A stretch of 63,769 bases of DNA, the filler included. It is 14 parts of 14 records of this genome, joined end to end, with 100 filler letters (N's around TTAATTAATTAA, not from the genome) between each part and the next. Parts side by side here need not be neighbours in the genome. Positions count along the whole stretch, not along the records: positions 45,037 to 61,415 come from SRR9670534_513; 13 more parts are not named here. One strand, written 5' to 3'. Position numbers and translations under genes: made by a program. Positions 14,849-61,415 of the stretch are shown here, one piece after another. The first letter of the stretch is position 1. Every line of letters begins with the position of its first letter. The notes under the pieces are model-generated. The model did no database searches. It saw nothing but the letters and a program-made list of their open reading frames with translations, and was not told the DNA's origin.

Positions 14849-17755
14849 GAAATAATCTACCAATGGAAGGACCTTGTTAAATCTGTAGAAATAAATGATG
14901 ATGCAAAGTCTTTACCTCAATTTGTAATCAAGAAAACTGAGGGAACCAAAGTAATTATCAACAGCTCAACTGGTAAGCTACATAGGGGCTATTATGTAAA
15001 TTAAGAGTCCTTATGCCTTTTATTTGTACAAGTAGATGAGAATCTTATTCAAACATGTATAATTCAATAAGAATGTAAGCATGTTTGTCAAGTTTACCAA
15101 GGGAGTCAAATTCAATTATTTATCTTGCCCATCTTGTTGCCCCCATGTTTCTATAAATAGATTATTTGGAGGCTCATAGGCAGGGTTTCAGAGCTAGTAT
15201 GAGTATGCATAAGTGACAATTTTATTTGGATATGATTTAATATGCAACTGGGCAATGATGATTTCAAGCATAATTGAGTTATTATAATGATATTATAATG
15301 AATAATTAAATAAGGAGCCAAATGGGAAATTTACATTTGGATGGGAATTATGCATGACAATGCCCTAAAACCAGTAATTATTCTTTAGACATGAGATTGT
15401 TTCATATTTTTGCAGAAAATAGGTTTTGGCATTTTGTCATGGGTAGCTTTGATTAAGTTCAAAATGTCATTTTATATATTTTAGCAGAATTTAATCATAG
15501 ATATAATTATTAAAAAAATCTTAAATTTATAAGTAAAAAATTTAAAATTATTAATTTTAATTGAAAAATCAACAATTTTTGAATTCATCTTCTATCAAGA
15601 GGTTTTACTGCTCTTGCAAATTATTTACAAAAAAATGCTTTTTAATTATATGCATTATTATTTTTCAACAAAATCAAAATTAAGTAAAAACCAAAATGTA
15701 AATGAAAAGTAATATTAATTTTTAAAAAAAATAAATTGAAGTTAAGTGTATTTTTGAAAATTTTAATTTGATTAATATTGTTTAATAATATAATCTAATA
15801 ATATAATATATAGATGTAGTATAGGTAATATAATATTAGCTTAAAAACATAGAAAATTGAATTAAAATTAAATTGTATATATTTCCAAAAATTTAATTTT
15901 TTTAGAAATAATATAATGTTTATTTTTTATTTTGTTTATTTTGTATAATATAAAATAATTAATACTTGACTAACTATAGTAAACATTATTAATATATGAA
16001 AGTTAATAAACTAAGGTAAACATGCCAAAATTACAGAGAATGCACAATTATAAATGTCATGTTTATTCACATGCAATTCAATGGCTCTCACGCAGACATG
16101 CAATCAATTCAAAGCAGCATTGCTTCGCGCCTTTTCTTGACCCTTACATGAGAAAATCTTAAGGCTCTTTTGGAAGTAATTATGTCCTCATTTTTCATTT
16201 AAAATAGAATTACTCCCATACATGATAGATACCTTATATAAATCTTAGGGTAGGGTTCCTCATACATATGTTTGACAAGCCCTCAAACTTGCACACGATT
16301 ATAATTTATAAACATGGATTATTAATAAATCATTACATAAAATAATATAAAATATATTTTATTTAATATTAAATTTCATATTTAAGTTTCAATTAAATTC
16401 AATATTTAAGTATAATTTTACATTATACTCAATTTTATTGTAGATTTAAATTAAAAATTAAAGTTATATATTATATTTTATATTACATACTATTATTTTA
16501 TATTATTATTGTATATTTTAAATTTAATTTTATATTTTAAATTAATATTTTATATTTTAAGTCTTCTTTATTATTAATTATATTACTATACTGTATTGCT
16601 ATATATATAAATTCTATTATGATAACACATTATGGTAATAATTTAGGAACATATTCAAGACTTATAGTGAAGCTTCATCTGGAACGCAATATTTTCTATT
16701 ACCTGATCCAGATTTACCTTCCAACCATGCTAATAGTGATCATTAGTTGGGTCAGCTTTTGGCTGCCAAGGAATGCATCTCCTGCAAGAGTTGCTCTTGG
16801 CATTACTACTGTACTCACCATGACAACCATCATGTCTTCCGCTAATGGTTCTCTACCAAAGATAAGCTACTTAAAATCAATTGACATTTTCCTGATTGTA
16901 TGTTTCTTCCTCGTGTTTGCTTCTTTGCTGGAGTATGCCATGGTCAGTTTTGTGGAGAGCTGGAATAATGCCAGAATCAAGAAGGCAAATTGGAGAAGAT
17001 TTGAGGCCTCCATCAGGAAAAATCATGGAGGTCTGGCAGCAATTTTGCCGCTGACATTACATGGTGATCAAAGTGAGGTTCCCTATGGTGCAAAGAAGTC
17101 AATGGTGAACATGCAGGTATTTACTAAATTAAACTGACTGATGACGTCATTAAAACGCTCGTGCTAATTGGTCTTAATAATAAATAAACAGTAACCAAAT
17201 CCAGCATGTATAAAGTCAACAAATTAACTTAGCTAAGGGGGAGCATGACGTCATCAATAAAATATTATCTCGCTAATAGATGGCTCTATTATTAGTACCA
17301 TATGTTACATGAGTGACATCTGTATTAAATCAACATAGATAGTAGTATGACGTCATTCATATTATCGCATTAACAGATGTCTCTATTGATAGTGCTATAT
17401 AAGCGACATCTTTTAGGAACAAGTGCTGCCAAATTCAAGGCAAAGATCCTTTCATGCAAATGGTCCATACAAAAGATCTGTGGTCAGAGCTGACTCTGGC
17501 GATAATTGGGGAGGACATACAATGATTCCCCCGGATCAAGTAGAAAATGGCCCCATTAACTATGAAGAATACTATGGGGAGGACATGTATGACGATCCTG
17601 AATTTTTACAAAAGAAATCTATTCTCTGCTTTACAAATAAAGCAAGTAAAATTGATACTGTATCAAGAATTGCTTTTCCTGTTGTTTTCATATGCTTTAA
17701 TATTTTGTACTGGGTAAGCTATTTACACATAACAGAACAAAAGAAAAATTCTTAA
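14849..17755 (+). CDS. Cys-loop ligand-gated chloride channel subunit, GABA receptor RDL/beta-like; 3' part (exons 14849-14972, 16647-17116, 17417-17755)
   Basis: SLPQF, GTYSRL, M1 [23 protein letters not shown]2 [28 protein letters not shown]3 FASLLEYA, M4 [10 protein letters not shown]. Confidence 0.92.
17141..17411. repeat. Degenerate ~103-bp tandem repeat in an intron, each unit starting with palindrome ATGACGTCAT
   Basis: ATGACGTCAT at 17141, 17245 and 17347; units 2 and 3 align further downstream. Confidence 0.7.
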
Positions 17756-25166: not shown

Positions 25167-25667
25167 TGTCACTTTTCGGTACCTAGAAATAGGTATGTAG
25201 GTACAGTGTACACATATAGGTACATGTACATGTACGTACCTACATGGTGTGACCTGGTACACATATAGGTACATGTATGTACGTACCTATATAAATTTTA
25301 TGTCATTATTAATAAACCAAGTCTAGGTTACAGGCAATTTACAGTATTTCTAAGTTTACGCATCGTGTAGGTAGGCAATTAGGTACATATAAACATAGGT
25401 AGGCTATGTAACATAGTTACTGTAACTGCATATACATACAAGATACATACATGTACAGTACATACATGTTGTACTTACCAGATAGGTATGTATGTGTATA
25501 CGCAATGCGTACTACCAAGGCTCTCTATAACAACATTTTGTATACTGCTTAGCTTAGCTACTCATCAAGGGTTTATGAGCATATAGGTATACCTATCAGG
25601 GTCCAATTGGACAATTCAATAAAAACTATATTCAAACAATTACAATAGAAACTGGTTATTTGCACAA

Positions 25668-43190: not shown

Positions 43191-43502
43191 TTTAACAAAA
43201 TATTACAAAACACTTATTAAATGTGATTGTAAAAACGCTATTAAAATGTTCTCATAATAATATGTGAGAGATAAGATAATTCAGAGAGATGTTGGTATTG
43301 AATCAATACTATTGATTATCTGATAATTCGAATAAATGTAAGTAAATTGTACAAGGTTAGATTTGCAACCAGTGTCAGTTTTTTTCGACAATTCGTGTGC
43401 AATGATATTATTATTAATAATAGAGATGATAATTATCCTTATTATAACGTAGGTATACGTCAAGGGTTCCAACCTAACAGTATATAAATCAAAGCAAGAG
43501 AT

Positions 43503-44936: not shown

Positions 44937-45036
44937 NNNNNNNNNNNNNNNNNNNNNNNNNNNNNNNNNNNNNNNNNNNNTTAATTAATTAANNNNNNNN
45001 NNNNNNNNNNNNNNNNNNNNNNNNNNNNNNNNNNNN
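44937..45036. other. Artificial contig linker
   Basis: N44-TTAATTAATTAA-N44. Confidence 0.98.
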
Positions 45037-45064
45037 TTTGCCCGACCCCAACCTGTTTGGTATA

Positions 45065-45130
45065 GCAGAGGCTGGCCTATTATGTATCTACTGCCTAATT
45101 ATCCCAGTAAGAACATAGGCCAGCCTCTGC
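45065..45130. repeat. Inverted repeat / hairpin with 16-bp perfect arms
   Basis: GCAGAGGCTGGCCTAT (45065-45080) and ATAGGCCAGCCTCTGC (45115-45130). Confidence 0.85.
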
Positions 45131-45294
45131 AGTACGGATAAGTTATAGTCTATTAGAGTCTATGTAGGTATTAGTCTACTAGAGTCTATGTACTCTACGA
45201 TCTATATATTTCGATAGTCTACTAGAGTCTTTACAGTACTAGTAGTATGATACTACAGTACATACATACATAACTGAAACTGTTTGTGTTTTAG

Positions 45295-45841
45295 CCGCTG
45301 CCAAAGAAAGAAGAGGTTAATAAGAATTTGTTCTTGTATAAATAACAGTCGTACAGTATGATCATCATGTGATAACTTATTTAATAAGTTATTATTATTA
45401 TTAATTAAACATCTTAGTTTAAGAATATTATTGTATATTGAATATACTATATTCTAGTGTTAATATGTAATACATATGTTATAATGTTATATGTACAATG
45501 ACTTTAAAATGATTAGAGTGAATACACAGTTTTGAAACATGACTTGATAGAAGCATATGAGAACAGATATCGACCAGATGGACCAACTGCTGAAGAAATA
45601 CAGAAAATGTTCTTTACTGGAAAACACGAATTTAAGCCAAGGTTAAGTTGGGAATTAATTGAACTTTTCTAATACGAAATCGTCTATACTATAGACTCTA
45701 TAGTATATTTCTAGCAGTTATTAATAGTAGCAGCTTGTAACATAACATATAGCCTATAACATATCTAATAGCGTATAATATTTCAGAAGTATTCACGAAA
45801 GGAAAATTCAACTTGTGGAAAAAGAAAGAGACCATATTTAG
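45295..45841 (+). CDS. MRPL42: Mitochondrial ribosomal protein L42, 3' exons (45295-45315, 45517-45641, 45787-45841); not in the ORF track
   Basis: Spliced PLPKKEE|SEY...GPTAEEIQKMFFTGKHEFKPR|SIHERK...* resembles the mL42 motif GP..EQL.KMFFTTKHRWYP. Confidence 0.75.
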
Positions 45842-45994
45842 TAGATAATTTTGATTTGATAAAAACTGAACCTTTTTTTCAATGAAAATTAGGATTGAAA
45901 ATTCAATTTGTAGTATGCATTATTTTTTTATCCAATTTAGAACTCGTGCGTTAAATTTTCTCGTGCTGTTTATTGGCTAAAGGATTTCGTAAGA

Positions 45995-46777
45995 ATGGGT
46001 TCTAAGGCTCTTCTTGTTGTTGCTGATGGTACTGAAGAAATGGAAGCTGTAATTTCAGCAGATGTAATGCGTAGAGGAGAGATTGATGTTACCATTGCTG
46101 GTTTGGTAAATGATGGTGTGGTGACTTGTTCAAGAAATGTCTTACTAAAACCCGATGTTTCTTTAACTACTGTTAAAGATAATTCATTCGATGCAATAGT
46201 CTTACCCGGTGGGTTGAAAGGAGCTGAAAGTTTTGCTTCGGTATGCATTCACTGTGTAATTTTTAAAACTGCGTATATTTTTTATTAGTCACCTCTCATT
46301 GGTGAAATTTTAAAGAAACAAGAAAGTCAAAATAGAACAATTGCAGCCATTTGTGCAGGTATCAATACATACAGTATATGTACTCCTTATTGCTATAATT
46401 TACAAAAATAATAGTCATAATCATAATTATTAATTATAATAAGTATAGTTGATGCAAATAAGTACCAGTGATTTAGCACCAATTGGATTGAAGCAACATA
46501 ATATTGGCAAAGGAAAAAAGGCAACTTCTCATCCTAGCGTAAAGGATAAGTTATCTGGTAAGTTATGACTTTGTGTTGTTTTGAATGATTTAATAAGAAT
46601 TCAATTCATCTTACAGATCATTTCAAATATCAAGAAGAAAGAGTGGTTTGTGATGGTAACTTCATAACAAGTCGTGGACCTGGGACAGCCTTTGAGTTTG
46701 CGTTAGCCATTGTTAAGCATTTGAAGGGAGAAGAAAAGATGAATCAAATAAAACCTCCAATGATCTTGAAAGATTAA
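45995..46777 (+). CDS. PARK7: DJ-1/PARK7 glyoxalase-deglycase; 4 exons
   Basis: [30 protein letters not shown] (catalytic Cys), [21 protein letters not shown] at 46775-46777. Confidence 0.95.
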
Positions 46778-46945
46778 TCACTTGATAATAATTAAGTCTT
46801 AATTAATATTGCATATAAGATTCTGATTAATTAGTAATAGTGCAAATTTTATAAGATTTACAATTAGGTATTCTTCATGTACCGGTAATTATTTTTAGTA
46901 GGTTTTTTAAGATACCTGTACTTACCAAATTGTATTTTTGCAGAA

Positions 46946-47896
46946 ATGTCTTTGTGTTGTTTGAAATGCTGGAACAAATTGTCTCGTTTGGTCACCAGTA
47001 AGAAGTTTTTATTAAGACAATTGTACACATCTACCATTTTACATTCTCCTGATGATAAAAATCCATCTGAAAGAGGCTTCGTTGACGTGTATCAACTGAG
47101 ACATGACGAACAAAAGCGAAGAGAATTGGCAAAAGGTGAAAGGTTGCAAGATGAAGTGCCTCTTGCTGGGGCTGTAGATGTTACCCAAGATTTAGGACAA
47201 ACTGTTGTCACTGTCCTAAACCAAGAAGTCGTAGATGACATTTTAATAGAACGTTATTCACCAATTGGTTTTGTACTTTCGAATAACATCAGAGTAATTG
47301 GTCCGATAGCCATATTTCCAAGAAATGTCTTTAATTGGAACGTTGGAGGCATTCATGATGTAACACCTGCTTCCATGGCCTTGTTTCATATGGTGGCACC
47401 AAAAATTGATCTTGTTGTTATGGGAACAGGAAGTTACGGAGGAGAAACATTGAATTTGGAAGTGATTAAGTACATGAGAGAACACGGTGTTGCCATTGAA
47501 ATGGCTCCAACCGAAATTGCAGTTACTACTTACAATTATTTAATGAGTGAGGGCCGATTTGTGGCAGGTGCAATGATACCACCTGAAAGAATGCATGAAT
47601 CAGATGATGAATTTGATTATCCACTTGGGATTGAGGAAATGAAAATGGTTCCTGGAATGCTATCTGCAGAAGTCAGAAAGATGATGCGGTTCGATCCCAG
47701 AGAACGTTTTAAACAAGTTTTAGCAGAAGAAAGCAAAGATGAAATTGACATTGAAGAGCAGAAAGCCAAATTGGAAGCAGAAAAACGATACGAAGATCCT
47801 GAAGTTTGGCGAATGATTGAAGAGGGAAGAAAAAAGGATGAGAAGGCAGACTCTGTCATTGTTAAAACAGATGATTCTGATAAGCCTAAAAAATAG
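46946..47896 (+). CDS. NDUFAF3: Complex I assembly factor NDUFAF3 (Mth938 domain), intronless, with terminal extensions
   Basis: YSPIGFVLSNNIRVIGPIAIFP...WNV...PKIDLVVMGTG...GVAIEMAPTEIAVTTYNYLMSEGRFVAGAMIPP. Confidence 0.9.
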   Translation: MSLCCLKCWNKLSRLVTSKKFLLRQLYTSTILHSPDDKNPSERGFVDVYQLRHDEQKRRELAKGERLQDEVPLAGAVDVTQDLGQTVVTVLNQEVVDDILIERYSPIGFVLSNNIRVIGPIAIFPRNVFNWNVGGIHDVTPASMALFHMVAPKIDLVVMGTGSYGGETLNLEVIKYMREHGVAIEMAPTEIAVTTYNYLMSEGRFVAGAMIPPERMHESDDEFDYPLGIEEMKMVPGMLSAEVRKMMRFDPRERFKQVLAEESKDEIDIEEQKAKLEAEKRYEDPEVWRMIEEGRKKDEKADSVIVKTDDSDKPKK

Positions 47897-48026
47897 CGCT
47901 TTCGCTAATTTAGCGTTTTTGTTTTATCAATATTTTTTGTATTTGTGGATTGCTCTCTGTACTATTGCAGTACCTATACAATAAATATGTTTATTATTAT
48001 TAATAATAAGGTATTCTTCCAGAGAG

Positions 48027-49607
48027 ATGGCAAAACCTATAAGAATGCTCATTTCTGGCGATGTCAGAGGAAACTTTGATGCTCTTTTTTCCAAAGTTGA
48101 AGCAACGAACAAAAAAGCTGGTCCGTTTGATTTGTTGTGCTGTATAGGCGACTTCTTTTGCGATGAAGACAATTCTAAACTCGATGATTATGTCGTAAAC
48201 AAATCTAAGCAAGTACCAATTCCTACATTTATTCTTGGTCCCAACAGTACCACTCATGAGAAGTTTTACAACCATTACTCAAGTGAAGCATCTGGTGAAA
48301 TTCTTCCTAATAAGTTATCAGTGTTGAAGAACAGTGGAATTTACACCACTTCTGAAGGACTTGTTATTGCCTACCTAAGTGGTATTGAATATGCCACATT
48401 TACCTATGATGACGCTACGACTTTGGCGGGGTATACCAAAGCTGTAGATGTTCTGCTGACATCTCAATGGCCAAGTCAGGTTGAGCTTTTTGCTCCATCG
48501 CAACCGAAAAAGCCCAGTGCAACTCATGGTTCGCCACTTATTAGTTATTTGGTTAACAAACTTAAACCAAGATACCATTTTTGTGCATTTACTGGTGAAG
48601 CATATGAACGACAACCTTTTCGAAATCATCAGCTTTTGCGAGAACCTAGTAAGCATGTTACGAGAGCCATTGCTTTAGGTTTTGTTGGAAATAAGGAGAA
48701 GCAAAAGTGGCTATATGGCATGAATATCATACCCACTACTAAAATTTCAAAAGAAGAATTAACCAAACAACCTGATGATACAACTGAATCCCCATATAAA
48801 GGTTTACCTGTCCCAGGTAGAATTAGCAAGGAAAAATCCAAAGTTGTAGCCCAAAATGATCCTGGGATACAATTCTTTTGGAATCAGCAAGAAATCATTG
48901 ACAGAAAAAGGAAATACGAAGGTTCTGGAGATGGTAGTTATGGTAAAAAACAAAATATCCAACATTTATCCAGAGATGACTGCTGGTTTTGTTTATCTTC
49001 AAAGAAAGTCGAGAAAGAACTGATTGTTCACGTTGGTGAAGGATTTTACGTAGCTTTACCGAAGGGAGGGTTGGTTCCAGATCATTTGCTAATTATACCA
49101 ATTTCTCACCAGAAGAGCACTGTTGAACTTGAATCCACTGAAGCTGTTGAAGAAATTGAAAAATACAAAAAATGGATTCGTCATTTTTGCAGCATTTCTG
49201 GTAATTCATGTGTCTTTTTTGAAAGAAATTTAAGATCTCCTCATTTGCAAATCCAAGCAGTACCAATTCCGAAGGAAAAGATGCCATTTGTCAAGCAAAT
49301 TTTTAAGGAACATGGTGCTGATAAAGGTATAAACTTTATAGATCTTGAAAAAGGACATGAAAATCTTACTAACTCTGTACCAGCAAATGTACCATACTTT
49401 TGGGTTGAATTTGATGATGGTGTTATTTTGCATCGGATTGGTAACAAACCCTTCCCACTACAATTTGGAAGAGAAGTTCTGGCTTCACCAGAATTGCTAA
49501 ATATGGTAGAAAGGGTTGAATGGCAGAAGTGCAGAATGGATCCAAGCGAAGAAAAAGACACGGTTAAAAGTTTAAGGGAAATATTTGAGAAATTTGAAGA
49601 TGAATAG
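48027..49607 (+). CDS. CWF19L1: CWF19-like protein 1 (metallophosphoesterase-like N-terminus, CwfJ C-terminus), intronless
   Basis: GDVRGNF...GPFDLLCCIGDFF, VDVLLTSQWP, LKPRYHF, YERQPFRN, CWFCLSS, ALPKGGL, FPLQFGREVLA. Confidence 0.95.
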   Translation: MAKPIRMLISGDVRGNFDALFSKVEATNKKAGPFDLLCCIGDFFCDEDNSKLDDYVVNKSKQVPIPTFILGPNSTTHEKFYNHYSSEASGEILPNKLSVLKNSGIYTTSEGLVIAYLSGIEYATFTYDDATTLAGYTKAVDVLLTSQWPSQVELFAPSQPKKPSATHGSPLISYLVNKLKPRYHFCAFTGEAYERQPFRNHQLLREPSKHVTRAIALGFVGNKEKQKWLYGMNIIPTTKISKEELTKQPDDTTESPYKGLPVPGRISKEKSKVVAQNDPGIQFFWNQQEIIDRKRKYEGSGDGSYGKKQNIQHLSRDDCWFCLSSKKVEKELIVHVGEGFYVALPKGGLVPDHLLIIPISHQKSTVELESTEAVEEIEKYKKWIRHFCSISGNSCVFFERNLRSPHLQIQAVPIPKEKMPFVKQIFKEHGADKGINFIDLEKGHENLTNSVPANVPYFWVEFDDGVILHRIGNKPFPLQFGREVLASPELLNMVERVEWQKCRMDPSEEKDTVKSLREIFEKFEDE

Positions 49608-49715
49608 GATTTTTAAGTTTTTCGGATTTGGTAGCGTTTTTAGTCTTTTATGCTCCTTTTTACGATTTTGAATGTGTTTAGAATTTTGGCCTAACAGTTT
49701 ATTAACATTAATTGA

Positions 49716-50211
49716 ATGAGTCAACAAGAGAGAACAGTAACCAACACAACCACTTGTATTACTGAAGAGCCGGTAAGTTTTCCCAAATTGTATTTATCAT
49801 TTTTATAAACAAAACTTTAGTTGAATACAATATTTCATTAATATACAACATTATTTATGCAATAATATCATACCCTTTAGGGGACAAGTCAACAAAATGC
49901 TGTAAAAATTCGCAAACCACGTGAAAAGAAAGAAGTGAAATGGACATCGGACACCGTTGATAATGAAAATATGGGGAAAAAGAGTTCAAAATGTAAAATT
50001 CCGGCGTTTTTTTTTCATTATGACATTATATTTTTTAGGCTGTTGCATTTATGTTAAACCTGAGAAATTTCGTGATCCGAAAGATAACGATTCTTCTGAT
50101 GACAGCGACGATGACAAAAATTGCGACCATTGTCGAGGTCATACTCCAAAATCGTTTAAAAGACCATCGAATGAATCCTGCAATGATCAAGGAGCTACTT
50201 CTGAGTCATAG
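49716..50211 (+). CDS. PPP1R11: Protein phosphatase 1 inhibitor-3; 3 exons (49716-49772, 49881-49992, 50039-50211)
   Basis: Spliced [29 protein letters not shown] is the inhibitor-3/Ypi1 signature. Confidence 0.93.
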
Positions 50212-52025
50212 TACTTTACATGAGCAATTTATATATACAACAATTGTCACATTTTTACGTTATTAAACGGCTTACCCCTACGTTACCTTTTGCAGTTTCA
50301 CTCCATAGTACATTTATGATACGATGACAAAAGTTGAATAGTTTTCCAATAGTTTTAACGTTTAACGTTTATATATACATAGTATCGTGTATATATCGAT
50401 AGTATCGTACGTATTTCCATATTTGTATTATATTTAATGTTGCTGTAAATACAAAATTAGTGGTTAAAATATTATGATACGGTATTACAAATAAAGCTCA
50501 ATAAGTTTTTAATATAATTAGATTATTATTTGAATGTATGACATAATGAAATTAGTAATTTGTATTTTTGGTAAAAGATGTCAGATAAATTGCCGCTGAG
50601 GAATTATTGGGCTGTTTACAGTTAACTATTCAAGTTTAACTCTTAAAAAAGTTTAAACTATTTAGAAAAGATGGCGCCATTATTGAGAAACAAAAAAGAT
50701 GGCGCAATTTCACGCAAAAGAATTTCCTCTACCTAAAAAGTACAATTTAGGTAATATGTATTTCTTGAACCTTTCAATTTGAAACCAGGATGTTAATTAT
50801 TAAATGTTAATTCTGACAAAGACAAGTTTAAATGAGCTAACAAGTATTATACATAAACTTTTTTTATCAATTGGTTTAAAAATTTTAACTGCTTATTAAC
50901 TGCCATTGGAACTGATTGAAATTTCTTTATCAGGGATTGGGAAAATTAATAATAACGAGATTTTATTTTGTTCTTTCCACCAATTATTGGCTACATTGGA
51001 ACAACTTGTTACATTTGTTACAATATCAATCAAAATTGTTTGCTTTCATGCACTCTTACTATGGCATGATAAACAACATGAGTCATTAGTAGTCATGTTT
51101 CTATCGAAATGCAACATTGATGTAAAAACTGTATTACTACATCATTAGTCTGCATGTTCAATATGTCAAACTTGCGGCGGAAGTCATTGACAATAAAACA
51201 ATATTTAAAACTTTCTCACCGGTGGTGTACCGGATAATAGCCTTTAAATAGTCTCGTCAAAGTGTCTAGTATTTAATAATGCATATGCTAGAAATCAAAA
51301 TCATTCCTAAACGATCTAGCGTATAGCTTATTAATAATAAGTTATTATTAAGAGATATGCTTTTGTTTGTTTTTGAAAGCACCTAAGGGCAGCCTTTTGT
51401 CCTTACTAAAGTTTAAGTTGCAAAGATCACTGTTGTTGAGCTACCTGCTTGCCTCAGATGAACTTGCAACTAATGAGCATTGTGTATGCTCTAAAAATAA
51501 CCACCAATCAGATTGCGCGTAGTATTGCACGCGCTTCCTTTGCCTCACTATTACACACTTATTAAACGGTATTAAACTGTGGCGTGTGTTGTCAGTTTTG
51601 CTACAAACGATGTTTGTTGTTGTTCATGTAGACTTACTTTTGATTTTAGAGGAGTGCTGACCTGGTCCTTAAGAGTAACCTAATCTGTCATAGCTGACCG
51701 CGTAGATGAAATATGTGATATACGCAGTATTAATAACCATGTGATATTGTCATTATCATGGTATTAAAGACATTATCTATCAGTAGTGCTAGGCTACTGA
51801 GAGAAAAAAAGTAGTACATATATTTATCGTAAATGGCAATTGATCACCTCTTTTGATAGTACATTTTCTAACTGTGCTGTAGCTCACCTTTGCTCTGATA
51901 ACTCTAGTAGCTGCATGCTGTGAAAACGTAGTTCTTGGTGTTTGCTTTTTTACTTTTCCTTTCATCTTTAGATTTTTGCTATTCTTTTCCCTAATTTGGA
52001 ATTAATTGGTCTGTTTTGAAATAAG

Positions 52026-55000
52026 ATGGAAAATACTAATCGAAATAACAATCGAAGCAATACTGATAGCAATCAATTCACAAATGATCAATCCGTCATT
52101 GATGATGATAGTTCAGGTCTACATAGCGATGCACTACTGAAGCTGATGGAAAGAACTGGGTACCAAATGATCCAAGAAAACGGGCAACGGTAATTACAAG
52201 CACATAGTATTCAATATGTGGGATATGGGGTGTTCAGTACATAGTAGTTCGAACTATGATCGTCAATGAATTACAATTTTTCATTGTCTGTACATGCTAC
52301 CATACATCATGTATGATATTTTTAGAAAATATGGCGGACCTCCTCCCGGTTGGCAAGGTCCACCTCCACCAAGAGGTTCTGAAATTTTCGTCGGTAAAAT
52401 ACCAAGGTGAGTTAATTATTTTATGTCATCCTCAGATCCTTGCTAATTTGGTCATTTCTAGGAATGTTTTTGAAGATGAACTTGTTCCCATCTTTGAGCA
52501 ACTTGGAAGCATTTACGAAATGCGCTTGATGATGCATTTTTCTGGTACTAACCGCGGTTATGCATTTGTAATGTACACTAATAAGGAAGATGCCAAGATG
52601 GCTGTTAGAAAATTGAACAATTATGAAATTTCAAAAGGTAAACGAATTGGAGTGTGTCGCTCTGTGGACAACTGCCGCTTGTTTGTTGGTGGAATTCCAA
52701 AGACCAAGGATAAGCAAGAAATCATGGAAGTACGTCCTTTCGTTATTACAAAAGTTATCTATATATGTCGTTGCTTATGAATAGACCCAGATAGCAAATA
52801 TTTTACTCACGAAGGTACATGTTTCTAGGAGATGACCAAAATTACTGATGGCGTGGTTGATGTCATCGTTTATCCATTGGCATCAGACAAAACAAAGAAT
52901 AGAGGGTTTGCTTTCGTCGAATATGACAGTCATCGTGATGCTGCAATGGCTAGAAGAAAGCTGATACCTGGTAGAGTTAATTTGTGGGGTCAGGTATGAA
53001 ACATTAGTTTTCGGCATAATGACTTATTTGTACTGTTGCTGCGTTTAATAAAATTGCACCAACATTTCAGCCAATAGCCGTTGACTGGGCAGAGCCAGAG
53101 CAGGAACCTGATGAGGAAATCATGTCTCAAGTTAGTACTATTTAATAGACTATTAATAATAGTTATTATAGTAATATTTATGAGTTTAAAATGACATTTG
53201 CCTCATTACAGGTGAAAATTTTGTACATCCGTAATTTAATGATTGCCACAACTGAAGATGAAATTCGTAATGAGATAATTAAGCATGTTCATATTGATCA
53301 AATTGAAAGAATCAAGAAGTTGCGAGATTTTGCCTTTGTTCACTTCAAAACTAGAGAAGCTGCCGAAATAGCTAAGAAAGCACTAAATGGTATGATTATT
53401 TATTAATTGTCTGTAAATCTCGGAATTTCTTTGCCTGCTTGTCTATCCATCTGTCTTCAAGTTCATTGATCTTTCTATGTAGATACCGATATCAGTGGTT
53501 CCAAAGTAGAGGTTGTCTGGGCTAAGCCGCCAGATAAAAGTCTTCATGAAGCGCAGAAGTCAATGAAGATGATTACCAAGTTTCAGCACCAGCAGCAATT
53601 TCAGCCTCCTTACAATCCTTGGAACATGCCTGGTATGGAGAGTTTTCCTAGCCCAGCCCATTTTGGTTTTCCGCAAGTTTTTGGGCCAGCACCACCACCA
53701 TTGATGACATCACCGCCCATGTCGCCGATGCCAGTCACTCAACCTGCCATGTTTCAAGATGGGTTACAAAGCACCGCCAGCAATGGAAGTGATGGTTGCC
53801 AAGTGTTAGTGAGATAGCCTTCCAAAAGATGTCACTATTGTTCCTACTTTTTAGAACGAATTCTCGAAGCAACACATCACAGGAAAGTGGAGGAGGAAGT
53901 AAGGGATCGTATGGGTTCAAAAAGTTGGGTCAGCGCTCTGCAGCAGGTGCTAGAGGATATAAAGCTAGAACATTGGCAAATGCTTTTGCCAATACCTTGA
54001 AATTGAACAACGGCAGAACATCTGTGCAGGTAAAATACTAACTAAATTACGATAGAATCCATTTTACTAGTAAGGAAATCGAATAAAAATAATGATAATA
54101 GCCTTTATCCATACCATTGCCGCCATTGTTCATGCCAAACTCTGCACCTCCTGGATGTTTTTACTACTGGCCAACATCACCAGTTGGTCTTGTTCCAGTT
54201 TCACCAACTTATTTAGATAATGACGACACTGATGTTAATCATGTCGAGGTAGTTATTGAATCTAATATACTGAGCAGCTTTGCGGCATAAAGTATCGTGA
54301 ACGCGCTTGCATTTGACGGTTTTTAAACTCTTTTAATAATATTGAACAGGCACATTATTATTTCCCGCGTAAAATCTAGCTGTTGGAACAATACTGTGAA
54401 CAGAATAGCTTGGGAGCACCAAAGTTTAGCTTCTTTTCTAATTCGGAAAGACCAGTACCTGGACAAGACTATTATGTGTGCAAGGTTAGTAATTACAACA
54501 ATATACATGTATACGATTATTTATTTTATGCAAATGTCATAATTATTTTAAAAAACAAATTTTAGATACAAATCCCAAGCCTAGGAAACAAGACGTTTGG
54601 AAATGACCACTTCATGAGTAAATCGACCGAAGAAGCTAAAGAGTTGGCTTGCAGAATGACTTTGCAACAATTTGGCAACACCACTGCTATACCACCAGTT
54701 CCACCACCCATTTCAATTGCCACGACCGGTCCTGAGGCTAGACCTACCAACATGTCGGATCGAAACAATAATACTGCTGGTCAGTAATTTATTTTAAAAA
54801 TGTACCAAACTGTAGTAACTAGTAGTCTACAGTGCGCTCTTTATTTTTAAAATGCTTGCTTGTCTGATAGCTCATGCTTGCCACTTGCAGATCGTATTTA
54901 TCCAAGAATATCCCAGGGTCAAGCAGTTGGGATACCTTCTTACTATTGCGCACCACCCCAAACACAGGGTTATTTTGCTCATCCCAGCTCTGCCTTAGTA

Positions 55001-55546
55001 CCTGATCAAAACAAAAAAATGGGCATTCAAACTGGGCCTGTTTTTGGATCTTCCATTTCTTACCAAATGGGCAATTTGAAATCGAATCCAAATTTGGCTA
55101 CTACTAGTGGAATTCATGGGGGTACGAAAATGATGAGACTGCCCCCTCTCAGCAAACCTAATACAGGTTTCCCTATACCTCAGGCACCCCTTTCAGCACC
55201 TGTATTCCCTACCCACAATCCATTTGGCAATTTTCCTTTTTCTGATGTTACTGCTGCTGCAGCTGCTGGCTTTGGTTGAGTTTATGAGTTTTTATTAAAC
55301 TTTTCATTTATTAATAATAAATTTAACGTGTAAATTTTAATTTTAGCTGTTCCTGGTCATTCGCCACCGAGTCAAGTAAATATGGATTTTCCATCGCCAA
55401 CGACACCTGGTTTTCAAATGCCAGCGCCTTTTTCGCCACAAGGGAGTGATGCTTGCATTCTTCCACCAATGAATCTAGCTGCTGCAGCTGCTGCAACTGC
55501 AAATGGTGCTGCTCAAACTTCTGAGGCAAAAATGGCCTCTTTTTGA
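52026..55546 (+). CDS. RBM46/RBM47/A1CF-family RNA-binding protein (3 RRMs plus C-terminal dsRBD-like domain); multi-exon
   Basis: [90 protein letters not shown]. Confidence 0.92.
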
Positions 55547-56266
55547 CTTGTTCCAATCTTATCTTAATAATTATTTAGCCATGTACGCTTTTAATTTTTA
55601 ATCATTATTATTAATAATCAATTCATCTTAATTGCGTCTTAATTTTTAATCATTATTATCCTAATAAGAAAGCAATGTTTTAATAATAACCATAATTATT
55701 AATAAGTTTCAGCGATATATAGGTAGGTGCTTACTACCATCTTTGATAGAGTAGAAAGATCTTTCTGTTACTACTATTCGAGATTGTTACTTTTGCTATA
55801 TTCACCCCTTATTTGTTATTACTACTACGTAAGCAATTATTTACAATTGTAATGCGTCACTTTTTTTTGACTTCATCATCTTTTTAGTCTATTATTCAAT
55901 GAATGTATGTGTAATGTGAATTGTTCTTTTGCTCTCCACCAACCGCGCAAAACAGTGAAAGTACCTTTGGAAGCATTCCTGGGAAGAAAAATGCATTTAT
56001 TATTGTTTGTTATAATATACTACATATGGCCATATTTTATTTGCTTCGCTTTAGGAATTAGTAACTATGTTATTTTATCATAGATATGTACTACTTTTTC
56101 TTTTTTTTTGGACTACACATTTAGTAAAACAGTCGATGCTAAATATTATGAATATTATTACATATGCAATGCTAACAGCATTTATCCTTATTATTAAATA
56201 AAGATGGATTATTATTACTATTGGTAGGCGTGTTTAAGTGAGTAAACGCAATATTTATATTCCTGG

Positions 56267-56299
56267 GTCACGTGACTAGTAGGTAGTGGGTCACGTGAC
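56267..56299. promoter_or_regulatory. Tandem extended E-boxes GTCACGTGAC (USF/MiT-TFE type) about 200 bp upstream of the kinase gene
   Basis: Two perfect 10-bp palindromes at 56267-56276 and 56290-56299. Confidence 0.55.
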
Positions 56300-56490
56300 A
56301 ATGAACAAGTAGACAGCGACAGGCGTCACGGCGCGTACATAACTTGTTTATTCTACTTAAACTTTATTTATTAATCCAGTTAGACTAACTGTTAGTTGAA
56401 ATTGAAAAATTTAATAGAACGCTATTTGTAAAATTTGATGCTTTAAAATTTGTGTCGTTAATAAACTTACAATCGCATAATTGCATAATA

Positions 56491-57649
56491 ATGCAAGCAT
56501 ATCCCTCAACTACATTTAGAGGAATAGCTGAAGGAGCACGTCTGGACAATCGATTCGTTGTGGTAATCGCTACTTTATAAAAAAATCTAGTTTTGATGCT
56601 TTCAAATTAATTTATTTCAAATTAGACAGAAGAAGGTATCTATGATGGTGAAATATACATCGGAAAATGTCTCGATGAAAGAACTTACAGGATTTGTACC
56701 TTTAAGTGTGAGGCAGAATTGACAAGGAAGAGACCTGAAAAATCTCTCTTGCGGGAAACGAAGTATTTTCGAAAACTTGAAGGTAATCTACATTTTTAAA
56801 TTAGGTTGATACTTTACTAGATTATCTATAACGTTAGGCAGTATAAGAGTTCCAAAAATTTTTGGTTCTGGTAGAACAATTCCAGGAAAGAGATTCTATG
56901 TTGTCATGGCACTTTGTGGTGTAAATTTATCCGTCATTCGAAATTCAATGCCCAACAGATGCATTCCTTTGATAAGCTTGAGTAGATTAGCAGAACAAAT
57001 GGCTCTTTGCCTAAACGACCTCCATTTGAAGGCAGATTTGGTTCACAGAGACCTCAGACCCGTAAAATCATCAATTTATTACTTATTGACCAACGAACAA
57101 TTTGCTCTATTTCAGGAAAGTTTTTGCTTTGGAACTGAAAGGGAAATGCGAACATTATACATTTTTGATTTAAGTACTGCAATGGAGTATCGTAAATCCG
57201 CAGAACCAATGACTTACAATAGTAGTTATGAATATTGCAGTGTAAATACCCACATGGGGGTAGGCTGCGTCCCAAGGGATGATTTTTGGTCAATGTTCTA
57301 TATCTTGGTTGATTTACAAACTGGAAGCTTACCCTGGACAAATATATTTAATGATGAGGAAGTTTGCACAATGAAGAAACAAGTATCCTTAGTAGGACTA
57401 ATTCGAGGCTTCACAATTGAAATGAAGGTTTTCATTACTCACATTAATCACCTACATTATTATGATTTGCCAAATTATAAATTGTGCCGGCGACTTTGGC
57501 TGAATCATTTGCTAAAGGAAGATGTTAAAGTTTACAAGACAAAGTATGAGTGGGAAACACAAGACGACGTCAATAGATGGCAGCAACTTCATCCGCCAAC
57601 AACGAGGAGAAACCCTGTCGTGATAAGCAGAAGTACCACTAAGCTCTGA
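56491..57649 (+). CDS. CK1-group (TTBK-like) divergent kinase, probable pseudokinase; 4 exons
   Basis: FYVVMALCGVNL, LVHRDLRP, YCSVNTHMG...PRDDFWSMFYILV...GSLPW, LHYYDLPNY are CK1/TTBK-type motifs. Confidence 0.85.
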
Positions 57650-57818
57650 AACCTTTTATTAATAAATTCTTAAAGCTGTAATTATTGTATATCATAATTT
57701 AATGTATGTAAATAAATTGTCACAGTCACCTATATAGTTATTATATTAAATTTTAAAATTAAAACCCGCTTTATTAATAATCCTACAAAGCTTTCAGCAG
57801 TTCTGAAATTTGAATATG

Positions 57819-60800
57819 TTATTTACCAAACCAACTACCAAAATAAGACAAAACTGATCCTCCAAATTCACCTTCAAGAATTCTTGCCTCTTTTTCATGA
57901 CCAACAGACTTTAAATCATTACATGCAATTTCAAGCAATGCTTTATCATTTCTCTTCTTTAAAAATTCTTTGACCAGTTCAAATAAATCATTGCCAACAC
58001 AGGAACTTATCAAATGGTTTACAATTAATAATTCAATCAAATCATCAGAAACAACATCAGCTGAAACGTTTTGTTGTAAATCTTTATTCACCTTGACAGC
58101 CAAACGCGGAAAACATTGAATCCTCTTAATACCAAAGCACAAAGCTGCAGTTTTCCATTCATCAACTGAAAATAAACTTGAATAAAGTTTCTGGCAATTC
58201 CTTTCTGAAAAAGAGTTCTCTTTGTCCATTCTATCCAATGCTCCAAACAGGTTATCAATGTGGACTTGTATCTTCAAGTCGGTGCTGGATAAATTCATTT
58301 TACCAACCAGGGCAAGAATCGCAAATACCCTTGGATCTTCCGTTTCATCAAATGGCCATGGACTAAGCTTCATACTCCAAATTTCTAACAAACTCAGCAT
58401 AGCATAAAACTCCTTTACTGAAAAATTTTCTTCTTTTTTAAAAAGTAGCTGAATAAGCTCCAATTTCCCTTTGGTAACTCTCAAATCTTCAACATTTTCC
58501 TTCACGTCAGGAAATAAATCGGGAAATTCTCTCTCTATCAAAACTGCAGTGGAGCAGTAAAAATTTATGAAACTTTCATTTTCGTTTAGTGTTCTGTAAG
58601 CGCTAATTAAATCAATTAACTTTAGTATTCTCTGGTAGGGTAGTTTGTCTAAATCCAGCCATTTACGTGCGATGACATCATCAATGAAATGTTGTTTCAG
58701 AACTGCATCGAAAAATTCATCCTCGATCAAAATGCAGTGCAAATGTTGCACCATATCGTGACTTGAAATATCCATTCGGTAAAAGACAAGATCTTCAAAG
58801 AGTGTCTGATAGATGGTCTTGATATCAATTCTAAAAAGTTGGCATATTTTCTTTACCATTACATATGCAGACTTTCCTTGAAGACAAGAATCATGGATAA
58901 CTGATTTAATTTCTTCAGAGTCACCCATTGTTGATTCAATCTGTGGCAAGATGTAAGCAAATTCTTCAGCTTTTCTACAAGTTTCACAGTCATCTATATG
59001 GGAAAATAATTGTTCAACCTTTTTGTTAAGGTCAGCGCCTTTGGAGACAGAAACTTTAAAGAATTCAGTTAAAATGTCCTTTCTTTGCTGATACGAGAAA
59101 AAAGCAGGTGATTTTTCAGAAAATAACAAAACCTTCAAAGTCTTTAAAAAAGTGTCATTTTCAGAACACGAAGCCCAACAAGGTTTCAATTTATCTTTGG
59201 TAAGTAAATTCTTGGCTTTTTCTGGTTCCATATTTGCGTGTTCAACCCACTTCCAAAAACACATATCAAAGAAGTAATAGAAAAGCTTGTTTTGACCAAT
59301 ATTCGAAAACGAACTGACTTTATCTACAAGTAAGTTAATCGTTCTCCAAAGAAAACAAGGCTTAATTTTCGGAATAACCATTTCCATTAAGATTTGTGAA
59401 TCTACACATGATGTCAGTAAATTATAATCCAAGGAACATGAAAGCCCATCAATGAGAGCCTTAACTAATTCCAAATGATTGCGTAATGAAAGTGAATTAT
59501 ACTCTAAATCTGCATCAAACTTACATGACTCAGTTAGAAAGACAATGAAAAATTGCACCATCGGCAAATTGGTGGTGATAACAATATCAGAAAATCTTTC
59601 ACAAAGTCTTCTAAATGGTAATTCTTTAATTGCAAGGGAAAAGTTGGGTTGTGAAGACACAATCTTGTCATAACCCAATTCATTATGGAAGACGTATTTT
59701 AACCTAATCAAATAAAATTCGCCAGAAGGAATATCATATTTATTCCCTATTTTAACCACATCTGCAAATATTTCCTCGTTATTCGTAAACGCTAAGTCAA
59801 ACAAGAAACTTTGTCTATATGACTGATCTGTATTAAATTTAGCCAAATTTAAACTACCGTCCGAAATGTTACTGAGAAAAACGCCTTCTTCATAATCAAT
59901 TAGTTTCTGCTTGACTCGGCTATAAAGAGAAACGAAATGACCATCTGGCTTCTCCTCTGTCATTCCATCAGCAATGTCCAATAAGTGTGAAACTTTAGGA
60001 CTATTTATCCATTTGGTTGCAACAGAATAATCCTCAAGCCAAATGGCAAAAGCTAAACCTGCCAAAACTGAGTGTAGCAAAAATTCAGTGTGTGGAATTT
60101 CTTCGTCAAACAAAAGTCTTTGCAAATCACTGTGAGACATATTAAGTAGTATACTAATACCAAACAGTGTGTCATTTGATAAACAACTTTTGAAAATTCC
60201 AGAAGTGGCTGAAAGGCAAAATAAAAGATAAAATAAAAGTATCATTTCATAATAAGTACCTTTATAGGTAAGTGATGAATCGCTTTCATCTGCAATCAAT
60301 TCGAAATAAGGATCTTTCAGCTGCTTAATGGTGGTTTCACTTAGGTCGTTTTCATCAAACTTAAAAATAAAATATCATATAAAAATTAATGAAAAAATTG
60401 ACCAGTGTTATTTATTAAATTACCTTAATACTAATGGCTGGGTATAAAACAGAATCAAAGAACTTTAGACATCCAAATTTGTTAAATACTGGCTGGTTAT
60501 AATTTTTATCATCCTCTGAAGATTTATCGTAAAGCGCTGGCAAAACAGTATTTCTGAGAGTTTCTATGCTTACGAAAAAGTTGCTTTCTTTATTAATTCT
60601 GTCAAGAAGTAAATTCTTCCAAATCAATTTCCTCGTATCAAGAACATCACAAATGCTTTCTCTCTCACAAACCGCTAGACAAAAATTTGCCAATTGCAAA
60701 GACTCAGACAATGAAAGTACATCATTTTCCCTCTCTAACATAATTTGAAGAATTTGAAAACAAAAGTTCCAAGCAGGGGTGAAAAATCTAGTTGCCAAGT

Positions 60801-61293
60801 AGAGAGCTCTTCCAGCTGCTACCTTATAATCAGAACGTTCCAGACCTTTAAAACCAATCAGAAGATGAACATGGAGCAGTTCGTCACTCTCTAATCCCAA
60901 TAATGTTCCCAGTTGTTCTACGCGTTCAATCTAAAATAGTGTTATCATATGAATAATTACACTAAAAGTTTTAGTCTAAAACATTAGGATAATCTTACTT
61001 CCAAAAATGCGGTTTGATTCGTTTCCAACACCAAATTAATGATGTCCATTTTATTCTCTTTCATTTTCACTTCCATTGGTATTAAGTCCATTTTAAACTC
61101 TTCCAAAAGTTTCAATCCTTTAATTAGCTTGATCTCCAGCTCAATTTTTAAATTTCCTGGAAAAGTTTTCAAACACGTCATGCATAACTGAATATTTGGA
61201 TCTTCCAAACCCACTGCTGCGTTGAAATACTGTTCAGAAGCCTCAATGACAATTTCTTCAGCATCCTTCACATTTTTTATTTTTCGTAAAAAT
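57819..61293 (-). CDS. NBAS: NBAS (NRZ tether subunit), C-terminal part; multi-exon
   Basis: IVIEASEQYFNAAVGLEDPNIQLCMTCL...LLEEFKMDLIPMEVK and KFNTDQSYRQSFLFDLA resemble NBAS segments (ASREYFNS...LEEFGVKILPLQVR; RF..D.QYKRETILGLA). Confidence 0.8.
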
Positions 61294-61373
61294 CTAAAAT
61301 ATTTTAAATAAACTTACGTATGTTATTATGCATGTATTCAATATATTGTATTGTACAATATTATTGTGCAAAG

Positions 61374-61391
61374 AAAAAAAAGAAAAAAAAA
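61374..61391 (-). terminator. Pol III oligo(T) terminator after the tRNA
   Basis: T9 immediately 3' of the tRNA on the minus strand, followed by a second T run. Confidence 0.65.
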
Positions 61392-61415
61392 TGCCGTGAC
61401 CAGGATTCGAACCTG
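61392..61415 (-). tRNA. tRNA-His 3' end (T-arm and acceptor strand), cut by contig end
   Basis: Reverse complement CAGGTTCGAATCCTGGTCACGGCA has the B-box GGTTCGAATCC and the TCACGGCA end typical of animal tRNA-His. The anticodon is not visible. Confidence 0.8.

Follow-up and report, generated by a model that had tools for sequence, protein, structure and literature searches.

A tightly spaced cluster of five co-oriented genes as a candidate spliced-leader-resolved operon

Operons that are resolved by spliced-leader (SL) trans-splicing have been found in a few animal groups, and they are thought to have arisen several times. Here, we analyze a cluster of five co-oriented genes (MRPL42, DJ-1, NDUFAF3, CWF19L1, and PPP1R11) that may be such an operon. 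The cluster sits on a 16.4-kilobase (kb) contig at positions 45037–61415 of a 63,769-base stretch of DNA, called the window below. The sections of PMC7986045 cited here describe SL-resolved operons in nematodes, tunicates, Schistosoma, chaetognaths, Hydra, and trypanosomes (PMC7986045). They list rotifers, copepods, amphipods, ctenophores, and others as groups with SL trans-splicing and without reported operons. Arthropod SL trans-splicing is known in copepods and amphipods, with operons unreported in those sections (PMC7986045).

The same sections give median intercistronic distances of 111–112 base pairs (bp) in C. briggsae, ~100 bp in C. elegans, 1 bp in Ciona, and 31–57 bp in Oikopleura (PMC7986045). 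The cluster resembles the SL2-type operons of nematodes in its co-oriented housekeeping genes, its spacing on the scale of 100 nucleotides (nt), and the occurrence of a poly(A) signal followed by a YAG (Y, pyrimidine) near the ATG. It differs from them in that the 108–168 nt measured here span everything from stop codon to ATG, which would leave a far shorter spacer between the cleavage site and the acceptor. Also unlike the nematode case, there is no SL1 or SL2 match in the window, and CWF19L1 lies outside the clade of one named nematode sequence. The single-SL operons of tunicates and Schistosoma are like the candidate in that monocistronic and operonic genes would share one leader and in their very short intercistronic regions. 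In length, the spacer implied in the third gap of the cluster is more like those of tunicates or flatworms than the ~100-nt spacers of C. elegans. Ciona operons are mostly dicistronic, whereas the candidate has at least five genes. In the part of the Paraspadella gotoi study cited here, an operon of this chaetognath is defined as at least two genes less than 250 bp apart and is validated by SL reads (PMC12460157). Housekeeping functions are overrepresented in the Paraspadella operons, which reach up to nine genes in that part of the study (PMC12460157). All four gaps of the cluster fall below the 250-bp threshold of that study (PMC12460157). The chaetognath operons are validated by SL reads, whereas the present cluster is a candidate read from DNA sequence, and nothing links the window to chaetognaths.

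Gene content and spacing of the cluster

Gene models were rebuilt from the sequence using splice models, open reading frames (ORFs), translation, and Pfam searches. They place five genes on the + strand in the order MRPL42 (3′ part), DJ-1, NDUFAF3, CWF19L1, and PPP1R11, the last four of which are complete. From each stop codon to the next ATG, the distances are 153, 168, 130, and 108 nt; the rebuilt models confirm the orientation and spacing reported in an initial annotation of this DNA. All five genes have housekeeping, mitochondrial, or RNA-processing functions. Farther along the contig, the following tandem gaps measure ~1.8 kb, before an RRM/A1CF-like gene (ATG 52026), and ~0.94 kb, before a kinase-like gene (ATG 56491). 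The tight spacing combined with shared orientation is unusual within the window. No antisense genes were detected in the cluster; ten antisense ORFs of 73–123 amino acids were found, and none of the ten has a Pfam match. Four tandem gaps in a row of 108–168 nt, the absence of antisense genes, and the functions of the five genes are points in favor of an operon, and the contrast between four successive gaps below 170 nt and the following gaps of 0.94–1.8 kb argues against five independently transcribed genes.

Short gaps and a common orientation would also be expected if the genes gave rise to stable polycistronic mRNAs on which ribosomes reached the downstream ORFs by re-initiation or internal entry, as happens with insect dicistronic genes. 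These two features are the only ones that point to such mRNAs, and we regard this explanation as very remote. The ORFs that would precede the downstream genes are long (185, 316, and 526 codons), long upstream ORFs disfavor re-initiation, and a canonical AATAAA is present in the third gap.

MRPL42 (mL42) is represented by its last two exons (45517–45641 and 45787–45841), which derive from a splice model and end in a TAG stop codon. The Pfam match is weak (MRP-S32, E 0.026, under the cut-off), and six of six PDB matches are mL42 (E 0.014–0.22). Its upstream exons are either off the contig or not recognizable, and the 5′ end of the cluster is out of view. The region upstream of the MRPL42 exons (45060–45204) contains an inverted repeat, seen by eye, and a 26-nt tandem repeat at 45147–45204. 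These repeats resemble mobile-element remains and may account for the upstream MRPL42 exons that were not found. The DJ-1/PARK7 homologue is a complete ORF of 185 amino acids in four exons (45995–46240, 46289–46358, 46477–46557, and 46617–46777), with a DJ-1_PfpI match on exon 1 (E 1.4e-18). The NDUFAF3 homologue is a single exon of 316 amino acids (46946–47896) that matches DUF498, the NDUFAF3 family (E 1.6e-26). The CWF19L1 homologue is also a single exon (48027–49607); its complete ORF encodes 526 amino acids and matches CwfJ_C_1 (E 1.8e-31) and CwfJ_C_2 (E 6.4e-16). The PPP1R11 (inhibitor-3) homologue has three exons (49716–49772, 49881–49992, and 50039–50211) that encode 113 amino acids with a PPI_Ypi1 match (E 5.5e-9), and its KCCCIY motif straddles an intron. 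The six introns of the cluster are 46–145 nt long.

Two of these gene models have features of their own. NDUFAF3 is unusually long; the DUF498 core occupies residues 101–211 of the 316 and is flanked by an extension of ~100 amino acids on either side. NDUFAF3 and CWF19L1 (46946–49607) are intronless, and DJ-1, PPP1R11, MRPL42, and the nearby RRM gene have many short introns. Intron loss or retroposition into the cluster could explain why the two genes lack introns.

The cluster lies in a window made of 14 contigs joined by linkers of the form N44-TTAATTAATTAA-N44 (for example, 44937–45036), which account for 26 N runs of 44; contigs that adjoin in the window are not implied to be adjacent in the genome. 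The window is AT-rich, with a GC content of 21–39% per 2-kb bin. Pfam identifies animal genes in it, including immunoglobulin I-set repeats, a Tiam-type RhoGEF, a Cys-loop channel, a rhodopsin-type G protein-coupled receptor (GPCR), eIF3g, a Reeler domain, and an endonuclease of the long interspersed nuclear element type. The other contigs contain long AT-rich non-coding stretches, and the window is not uniformly compact.

Intergenic gaps and putative trans-splice sites

We put the probability that the cluster is an SL-resolved operon at roughly 0.42. In such an operon, a promoter upstream of MRPL42 and off the contig would give rise to a single polycistronic pre-mRNA of the five genes. Cleavage and polyadenylation at the 3′ end of each upstream gene would split the precursor into single-gene mRNAs, and cleavage would be coupled to trans-splicing of a spliced leader, which this organism would have to possess, onto an acceptor just 5′ of the next ORF. 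Trans-splicing would be most credible for NDUFAF3 and CWF19L1, whose AGs end at 46943 and 48022, respectively. For DJ-1 (45940) and PPP1R11 (49681 or 49697), the candidate sites are possible but weak.

The third gap (47897–48026, + strand, 130 nt, 46% T) contains the acceptor TTCTTCCAG, whose AG ends at 48022 and is separated from the CWF19L1 ATG by 4 nt. The AATAAA at 47980–47985 is the sole canonical hexamer after NDUFAF3; it starts 42 nt before the acceptor, which agrees with the distance of about 40 nt given in the initial annotation, and 47 nt before the ATG. Cleavage takes place ~15–25 nt downstream of a poly(A) hexamer, which would leave at most ~30 nt between the predicted cleavage site and the CWF19L1 ATG. 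A separate CWF19L1 promoter and 5′ untranslated region (UTR) would therefore overlap the 3′ end of NDUFAF3, and this argues against independent transcription of the two genes. Between cleavage site and acceptor, this would leave a short spacer of roughly 10–25 nt, ~25 nt at most. Donors in this gap are weak only (GTATTT at 47939), which also disfavors an independent CWF19L1 gene with a 5′UTR intron.

The second gap (46778–46945, + strand, 168 nt) has the acceptor TTTTTGCAG ending at 46943, 2 nt before the NDUFAF3 ATG. It contains AATAAT as its only poly(A)-like hexamer. An AATAAA lies upstream at 46747–46752 within the DJ-1 coding sequence and starts 28 nt before the stop codon, and the DJ-1 3′UTR may be extremely short. 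The first gap (45842–45994, + strand, 153 nt) has a TTTAG ending at 45940, 54 nt before the DJ-1 ATG. Its poly(A) variants are AATGAA at 45881 and GATAAA at 45858; neither AATAAA nor ATTAAA is present. The fourth gap (49608–49715, + strand, 108 nt, 50% T) has a TGTTTAG ending at 49681, 34 nt before the PPP1R11 ATG, and a second YAG ending at 49697. A test for 13 poly(A) hexamer variants gave no match in this gap, a point for an operon and against independent genes. A reading by eye revealed no usable cis donor in the first and fourth gaps, another point against independent genes with spliced 5′UTRs. The four AGs thus end where the initial annotation had placed them.

The sense strand is T-rich in four of four gaps, with an AT skew of −0.12 to −0.38, a further point for an operon; the skew is −0.03 in both the spacer between convergent genes farther along the contig and the spacer that follows PPP1R11. 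The latter spacer (50212–50698, + strand) contains ATTAAA at 50262, AATAAA at 50490, TATCGATA at 50394, and AGATGGCG at 50669 and 50697. The 3′ boundary of the unit likely lies here, with promoter-like motifs beyond it. AGATGGCG has three matches in the window compared to 0.34 expected, and the single copy of TATCGATA is not significant.

Short strings are shared between some of the gaps. The 11-mer AGGTATTCTTC is common to the second and third gaps (46866–46876 and 48009–48019), which hold its only copies in the window. The 10-mer TAGCGTTTTT is common to the third and fourth gaps (47911–47920 and 49632–49641), 14 and 24 nt past the stop codons, and a third copy is found at 43231 on the − strand. 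The sharing of both strings may be due to chance.

The strength of the four acceptors was compared to a curated set of 25 acceptors and 18 donors from introns backed by reading frame and Pfam continuity. The curated acceptors are short T-rich YAGs with 5–11 pyrimidines in the 12 nt before the AG. A position weight matrix built from the 25 acceptors was dropped as too noisy, the strongest-looking site (51971) having scored −3.3, and the pyrimidine count of the 12 nt was used in its place. The best counts in the four gaps are 9, 9, 8, and 8 of 12. The best acceptor of the fourth gap is 49697 and not 49681, which has 7 of 12 and a score of 2.3 on the weak weight matrix. Random non-coding positions of the window have a YAG with at least 9 of 12 pyrimidines within 60 nt upstream in 14.6% of cases; the value rises to 30.7% for at least 8 of 12 and to ~50% for at least 7 of 12.

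The position of two acceptors is more informative. A YAG with at least 8 of 12 pyrimidines lies within 6 nt of 3.6% of non-coding positions and of 3.8% of 1110 non-coding ATGs. Two of the four downstream ATGs have such a YAG, NDUFAF3 at 2 nt and CWF19L1 at 4 nt. The binomial probability of this result is ~0.007, which should be read as ~0.02–0.04 since the 6-nt window was chosen post hoc. The AGs ending at 46943 and 48022 are probably real 3′ splice sites because their ATG-abutting position exceeds the null. Of the acceptors reported in the initial annotation, these two stand out from the non-coding null, and 45940 and 49681 do not.

Acceptors that abut an ATG do not by themselves call for a spliced leader. 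They would also be explained by co-transcription in which a read-through precursor is cis-spliced from an upstream non-coding exon to the ATG-proximal acceptors, that is, by alternative splicing of a shared 5′ exon. A hybrid of this arrangement would have only CWF19L1 and PPP1R11 depend on upstream transcription. Co-transcription of this kind would account for the missing hexamer of the fourth gap and for the tight third gap. No candidate for the shared exon is visible, the 5′ end of the cluster being off the contig, and each mRNA would need one splice that skips whole upstream genes. We know of no precedent for such skipping at five genes, and we consider cis-spliced co-transcription quite improbable.

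Possible cis splicing, promoter-like motifs, and neighboring genes

Several observations weigh against an SL-resolved operon. The presence of an acceptor-like AG in every gap is about what chance would give in AT-rich non-coding DNA. It is not a strong argument because the gap scores match the non-coding chance rates, and the acceptors at 45940 (9 of 12, null p 0.145 within 60 nt) and 49681 are at chance level. The acceptor at 46943 is preceded by two candidate cis donors at typical intron distances, AG|GTATTC at 46868 (76-nt intron) and CG|GTAATT at 46885 (59-nt intron), the latter being the GTAATT that the initial annotation had noted near 46884. GTAATT is the donor in 4 of the 18 curated introns, and 59 nt is a typical intron size here. 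A cis intron in the 5′UTR of NDUFAF3 is plausible because both GTAATT at 46885 and GTATTC at 46868 fit the intron sizes. The initial annotation had named the pairing of these AGs with cis donors as evidence against trans-splicing; such pairing is a live option for 46943, and the other three gaps offer weak donors (third gap) or none that was seen (first and fourth gaps). A search for an SL RNA gene gave no Rfam match at the gathering score in the 63.8-kb window. Six Rfam matches were obtained in the window at E values up to 1, none of them relevant and none to SL1 or SL2. A scan of the window for a donor followed by an Sm site yielded nothing convincing.

The promoter-like content of the first gap argues mildly against a single promoter for the cluster. 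CTCGTGC occurs at 45943 and 45960, and ATTGGCT, a reversed CCAAT, follows at 45972. There are three copies of CTCGTGC in the window, two of them in this 45943–45978 region with its ATTGG. The third copy, at 17158 (17158–17175), is likewise followed by ATTGG and lies beside TGACGTCA. CTCGTGC plus ATTGG may be a shared regulatory module, and its presence in the first gap hints that DJ-1 may have its own promoter. Promoter-like elements are also found at other genes of the window. At the GPCR, TATATAAA lies 58 nt upstream of the ATG. The kinase-like gene (ATG 56491) has the palindrome GTCACGTGAC twice, 23 nt apart, at 56267–56299, ~200 nt upstream. These are the only copies in the window, and the pair looks like an E-box type promoter element.

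The 3′ ends of neighboring genes point in the same direction. The stop codons of the convergent kinase-like and KNTC1-like genes are 172 nt apart, and 3′UTRs can therefore be very short here. It follows that gaps of 110–170 nt can hold a 3′UTR together with a short 5′UTR. Acceptor-like sites with possible cis donors also precede the ATGs of eIF3g (16 nt) and the RRM gene (54 nt), both of which lie outside the tight cluster, and 5′UTR splicing of some kind seems common among housekeeping genes here.

These observations fit five independent genes in a compact housekeeping cluster, whose small promoters would overlap the preceding 3′ ends and whose UTRs would be very short. The AG at 46943, and perhaps that at 48022, would then close short 5′UTR introns, and 45940 and 49681 would be chance occurrences. 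The two donors before 46943 suit this explanation given cluster introns of 46–145 nt, as does the occurrence of TATAAGATT twice in the second gap (46814 and 46850), upstream of both donors. The paired motifs of the first gap, the conventional promoter elements at other genes, and the acceptor-like sites of eIF3g and the RRM gene point to it as well, and the convergent stops and AATAAA positions suggest 3′UTRs down to ~35–70 nt. Animals without operons can have short intergenic regions and introns, as documented in the cited sections on Dimorphilus gyrociliatus (PMC7854359). Its median intron is 66 bp, its intergenic regions are short, and operons and trans-splicing were excluded, in those sections, by the assay for transposase-accessible chromatin with sequencing (ATAC-seq) and by k-mer analysis of 5′UTRs (PMC7854359). 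Dimorphilus and the present cluster share short introns; the window differs in not being compact throughout. Some of the support for independent genes is weakened by base composition, since TATA-like and donor-like strings are frequent by chance at 23–28% GC. A GTAAG, GTAAT, or GTATG is expected in about one in three stretches of 110 nt from a base-composition estimate at that GC content. Together with the spacing and the third and fourth gaps described above, this leaves independent genes as a serious possibility, short of even odds and only slightly less probable than the SL-resolved operon. For the SL-resolved operon, the layout, the spacing, the two acceptors that abut an ATG, and the poly(A) signal of the third gap stand in favor of the polycistronic reading first proposed for this locus, and the cis donors of the second gap and the promoter-like first gap speak against it.

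Three further observations concern the neighboring genes. A short ORF that starts at 50699 ends at a donor-like AG|GTAATATG, with the donor GT at 50751. This region may be a non-coding first exon joined by splicing to 51971, a strong acceptor that precedes the ATG of the RRM gene (52026). The KNTC1/Rod-like gene (57822–61313, − strand) contains an 851-amino acid exon with no Pfam match at E 0.001. The nearest Atlas clusters of this ORF carry Rod_C, and a search with it among longer proteins gave no matches. A palindromic, low-complexity stretch rich in GTAC and TG lies upstream of eIF3g at 25213–25296. It has weak matches to mir-297 and mir-466 (39.8 bits compared to a gathering score of 90 bits) that are most likely due to chance.

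Phylogenetic placement and implications

The CWF19L1 protein was used to place the organism. Its best full-length identity is 44–45% both among 5.8 billion clustered proteins and, in a second library, among 1.84 billion representatives, and the best matches come from many phyla. A tree under the LG model places CWF19L1 inside the arthropods with a Shimodaira–Hasegawa-like approximate likelihood ratio test (SH-aLRT) value of 95. The arthropod placement collapsed in a C20 mixture tree, which gave no grouping with Ciona either; a position beside Ciona in the FastTree analysis was not kept by the mixture tree. The tree of the N-terminal domain sets CWF19L1 outside the clade with the single named nematode sequence. 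A fragment resembling the GABA-receptor beta subunit falls on a very long branch in a clade of arthropods and lophotrochozoans, where paralogy is possible. The Atlas comparisons give leads only: the nearest clusters of the KNTC1-like ORF are mostly arthropod, and the nearest cluster of the long NDUFAF3 is a 330-amino acid, mostly nematode form (score 0.93), the arthropod cluster being 194 amino acids long. A metagenome scan with CWF19L1 for syntenic relatives returned one locus with a 36-residue match, which was uninformative. We read these results as pointing to a fast-evolving bilaterian that is probably a protostome. The weak hints lean toward arthropods, a lineage without reported operons, and in this respect they count against an operon.

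The cluster is a well-formed candidate operon rather than a demonstrated case. It is rather unlikely, on present evidence, that it represents an SL-resolved operon with five or more genes from a lineage of animals to which nothing in public protein sets is closely related. Such a lineage might belong to the arthropods or to another group from which operons have never been reported, whether or not SL trans-splicing is known there. The case would be ordinary if the organism were a nematode, flatworm, tunicate, or chaetognath. If the candidate proved to be such an operon, operons would have one more independent origin or a wider known range. A verified five-gene operon outside the known set would be a data point on how frequently polycistronic transcription has evolved in animals. 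It would also inform the genome features that accompany such operons, namely intron loss, compaction, and housekeeping content.

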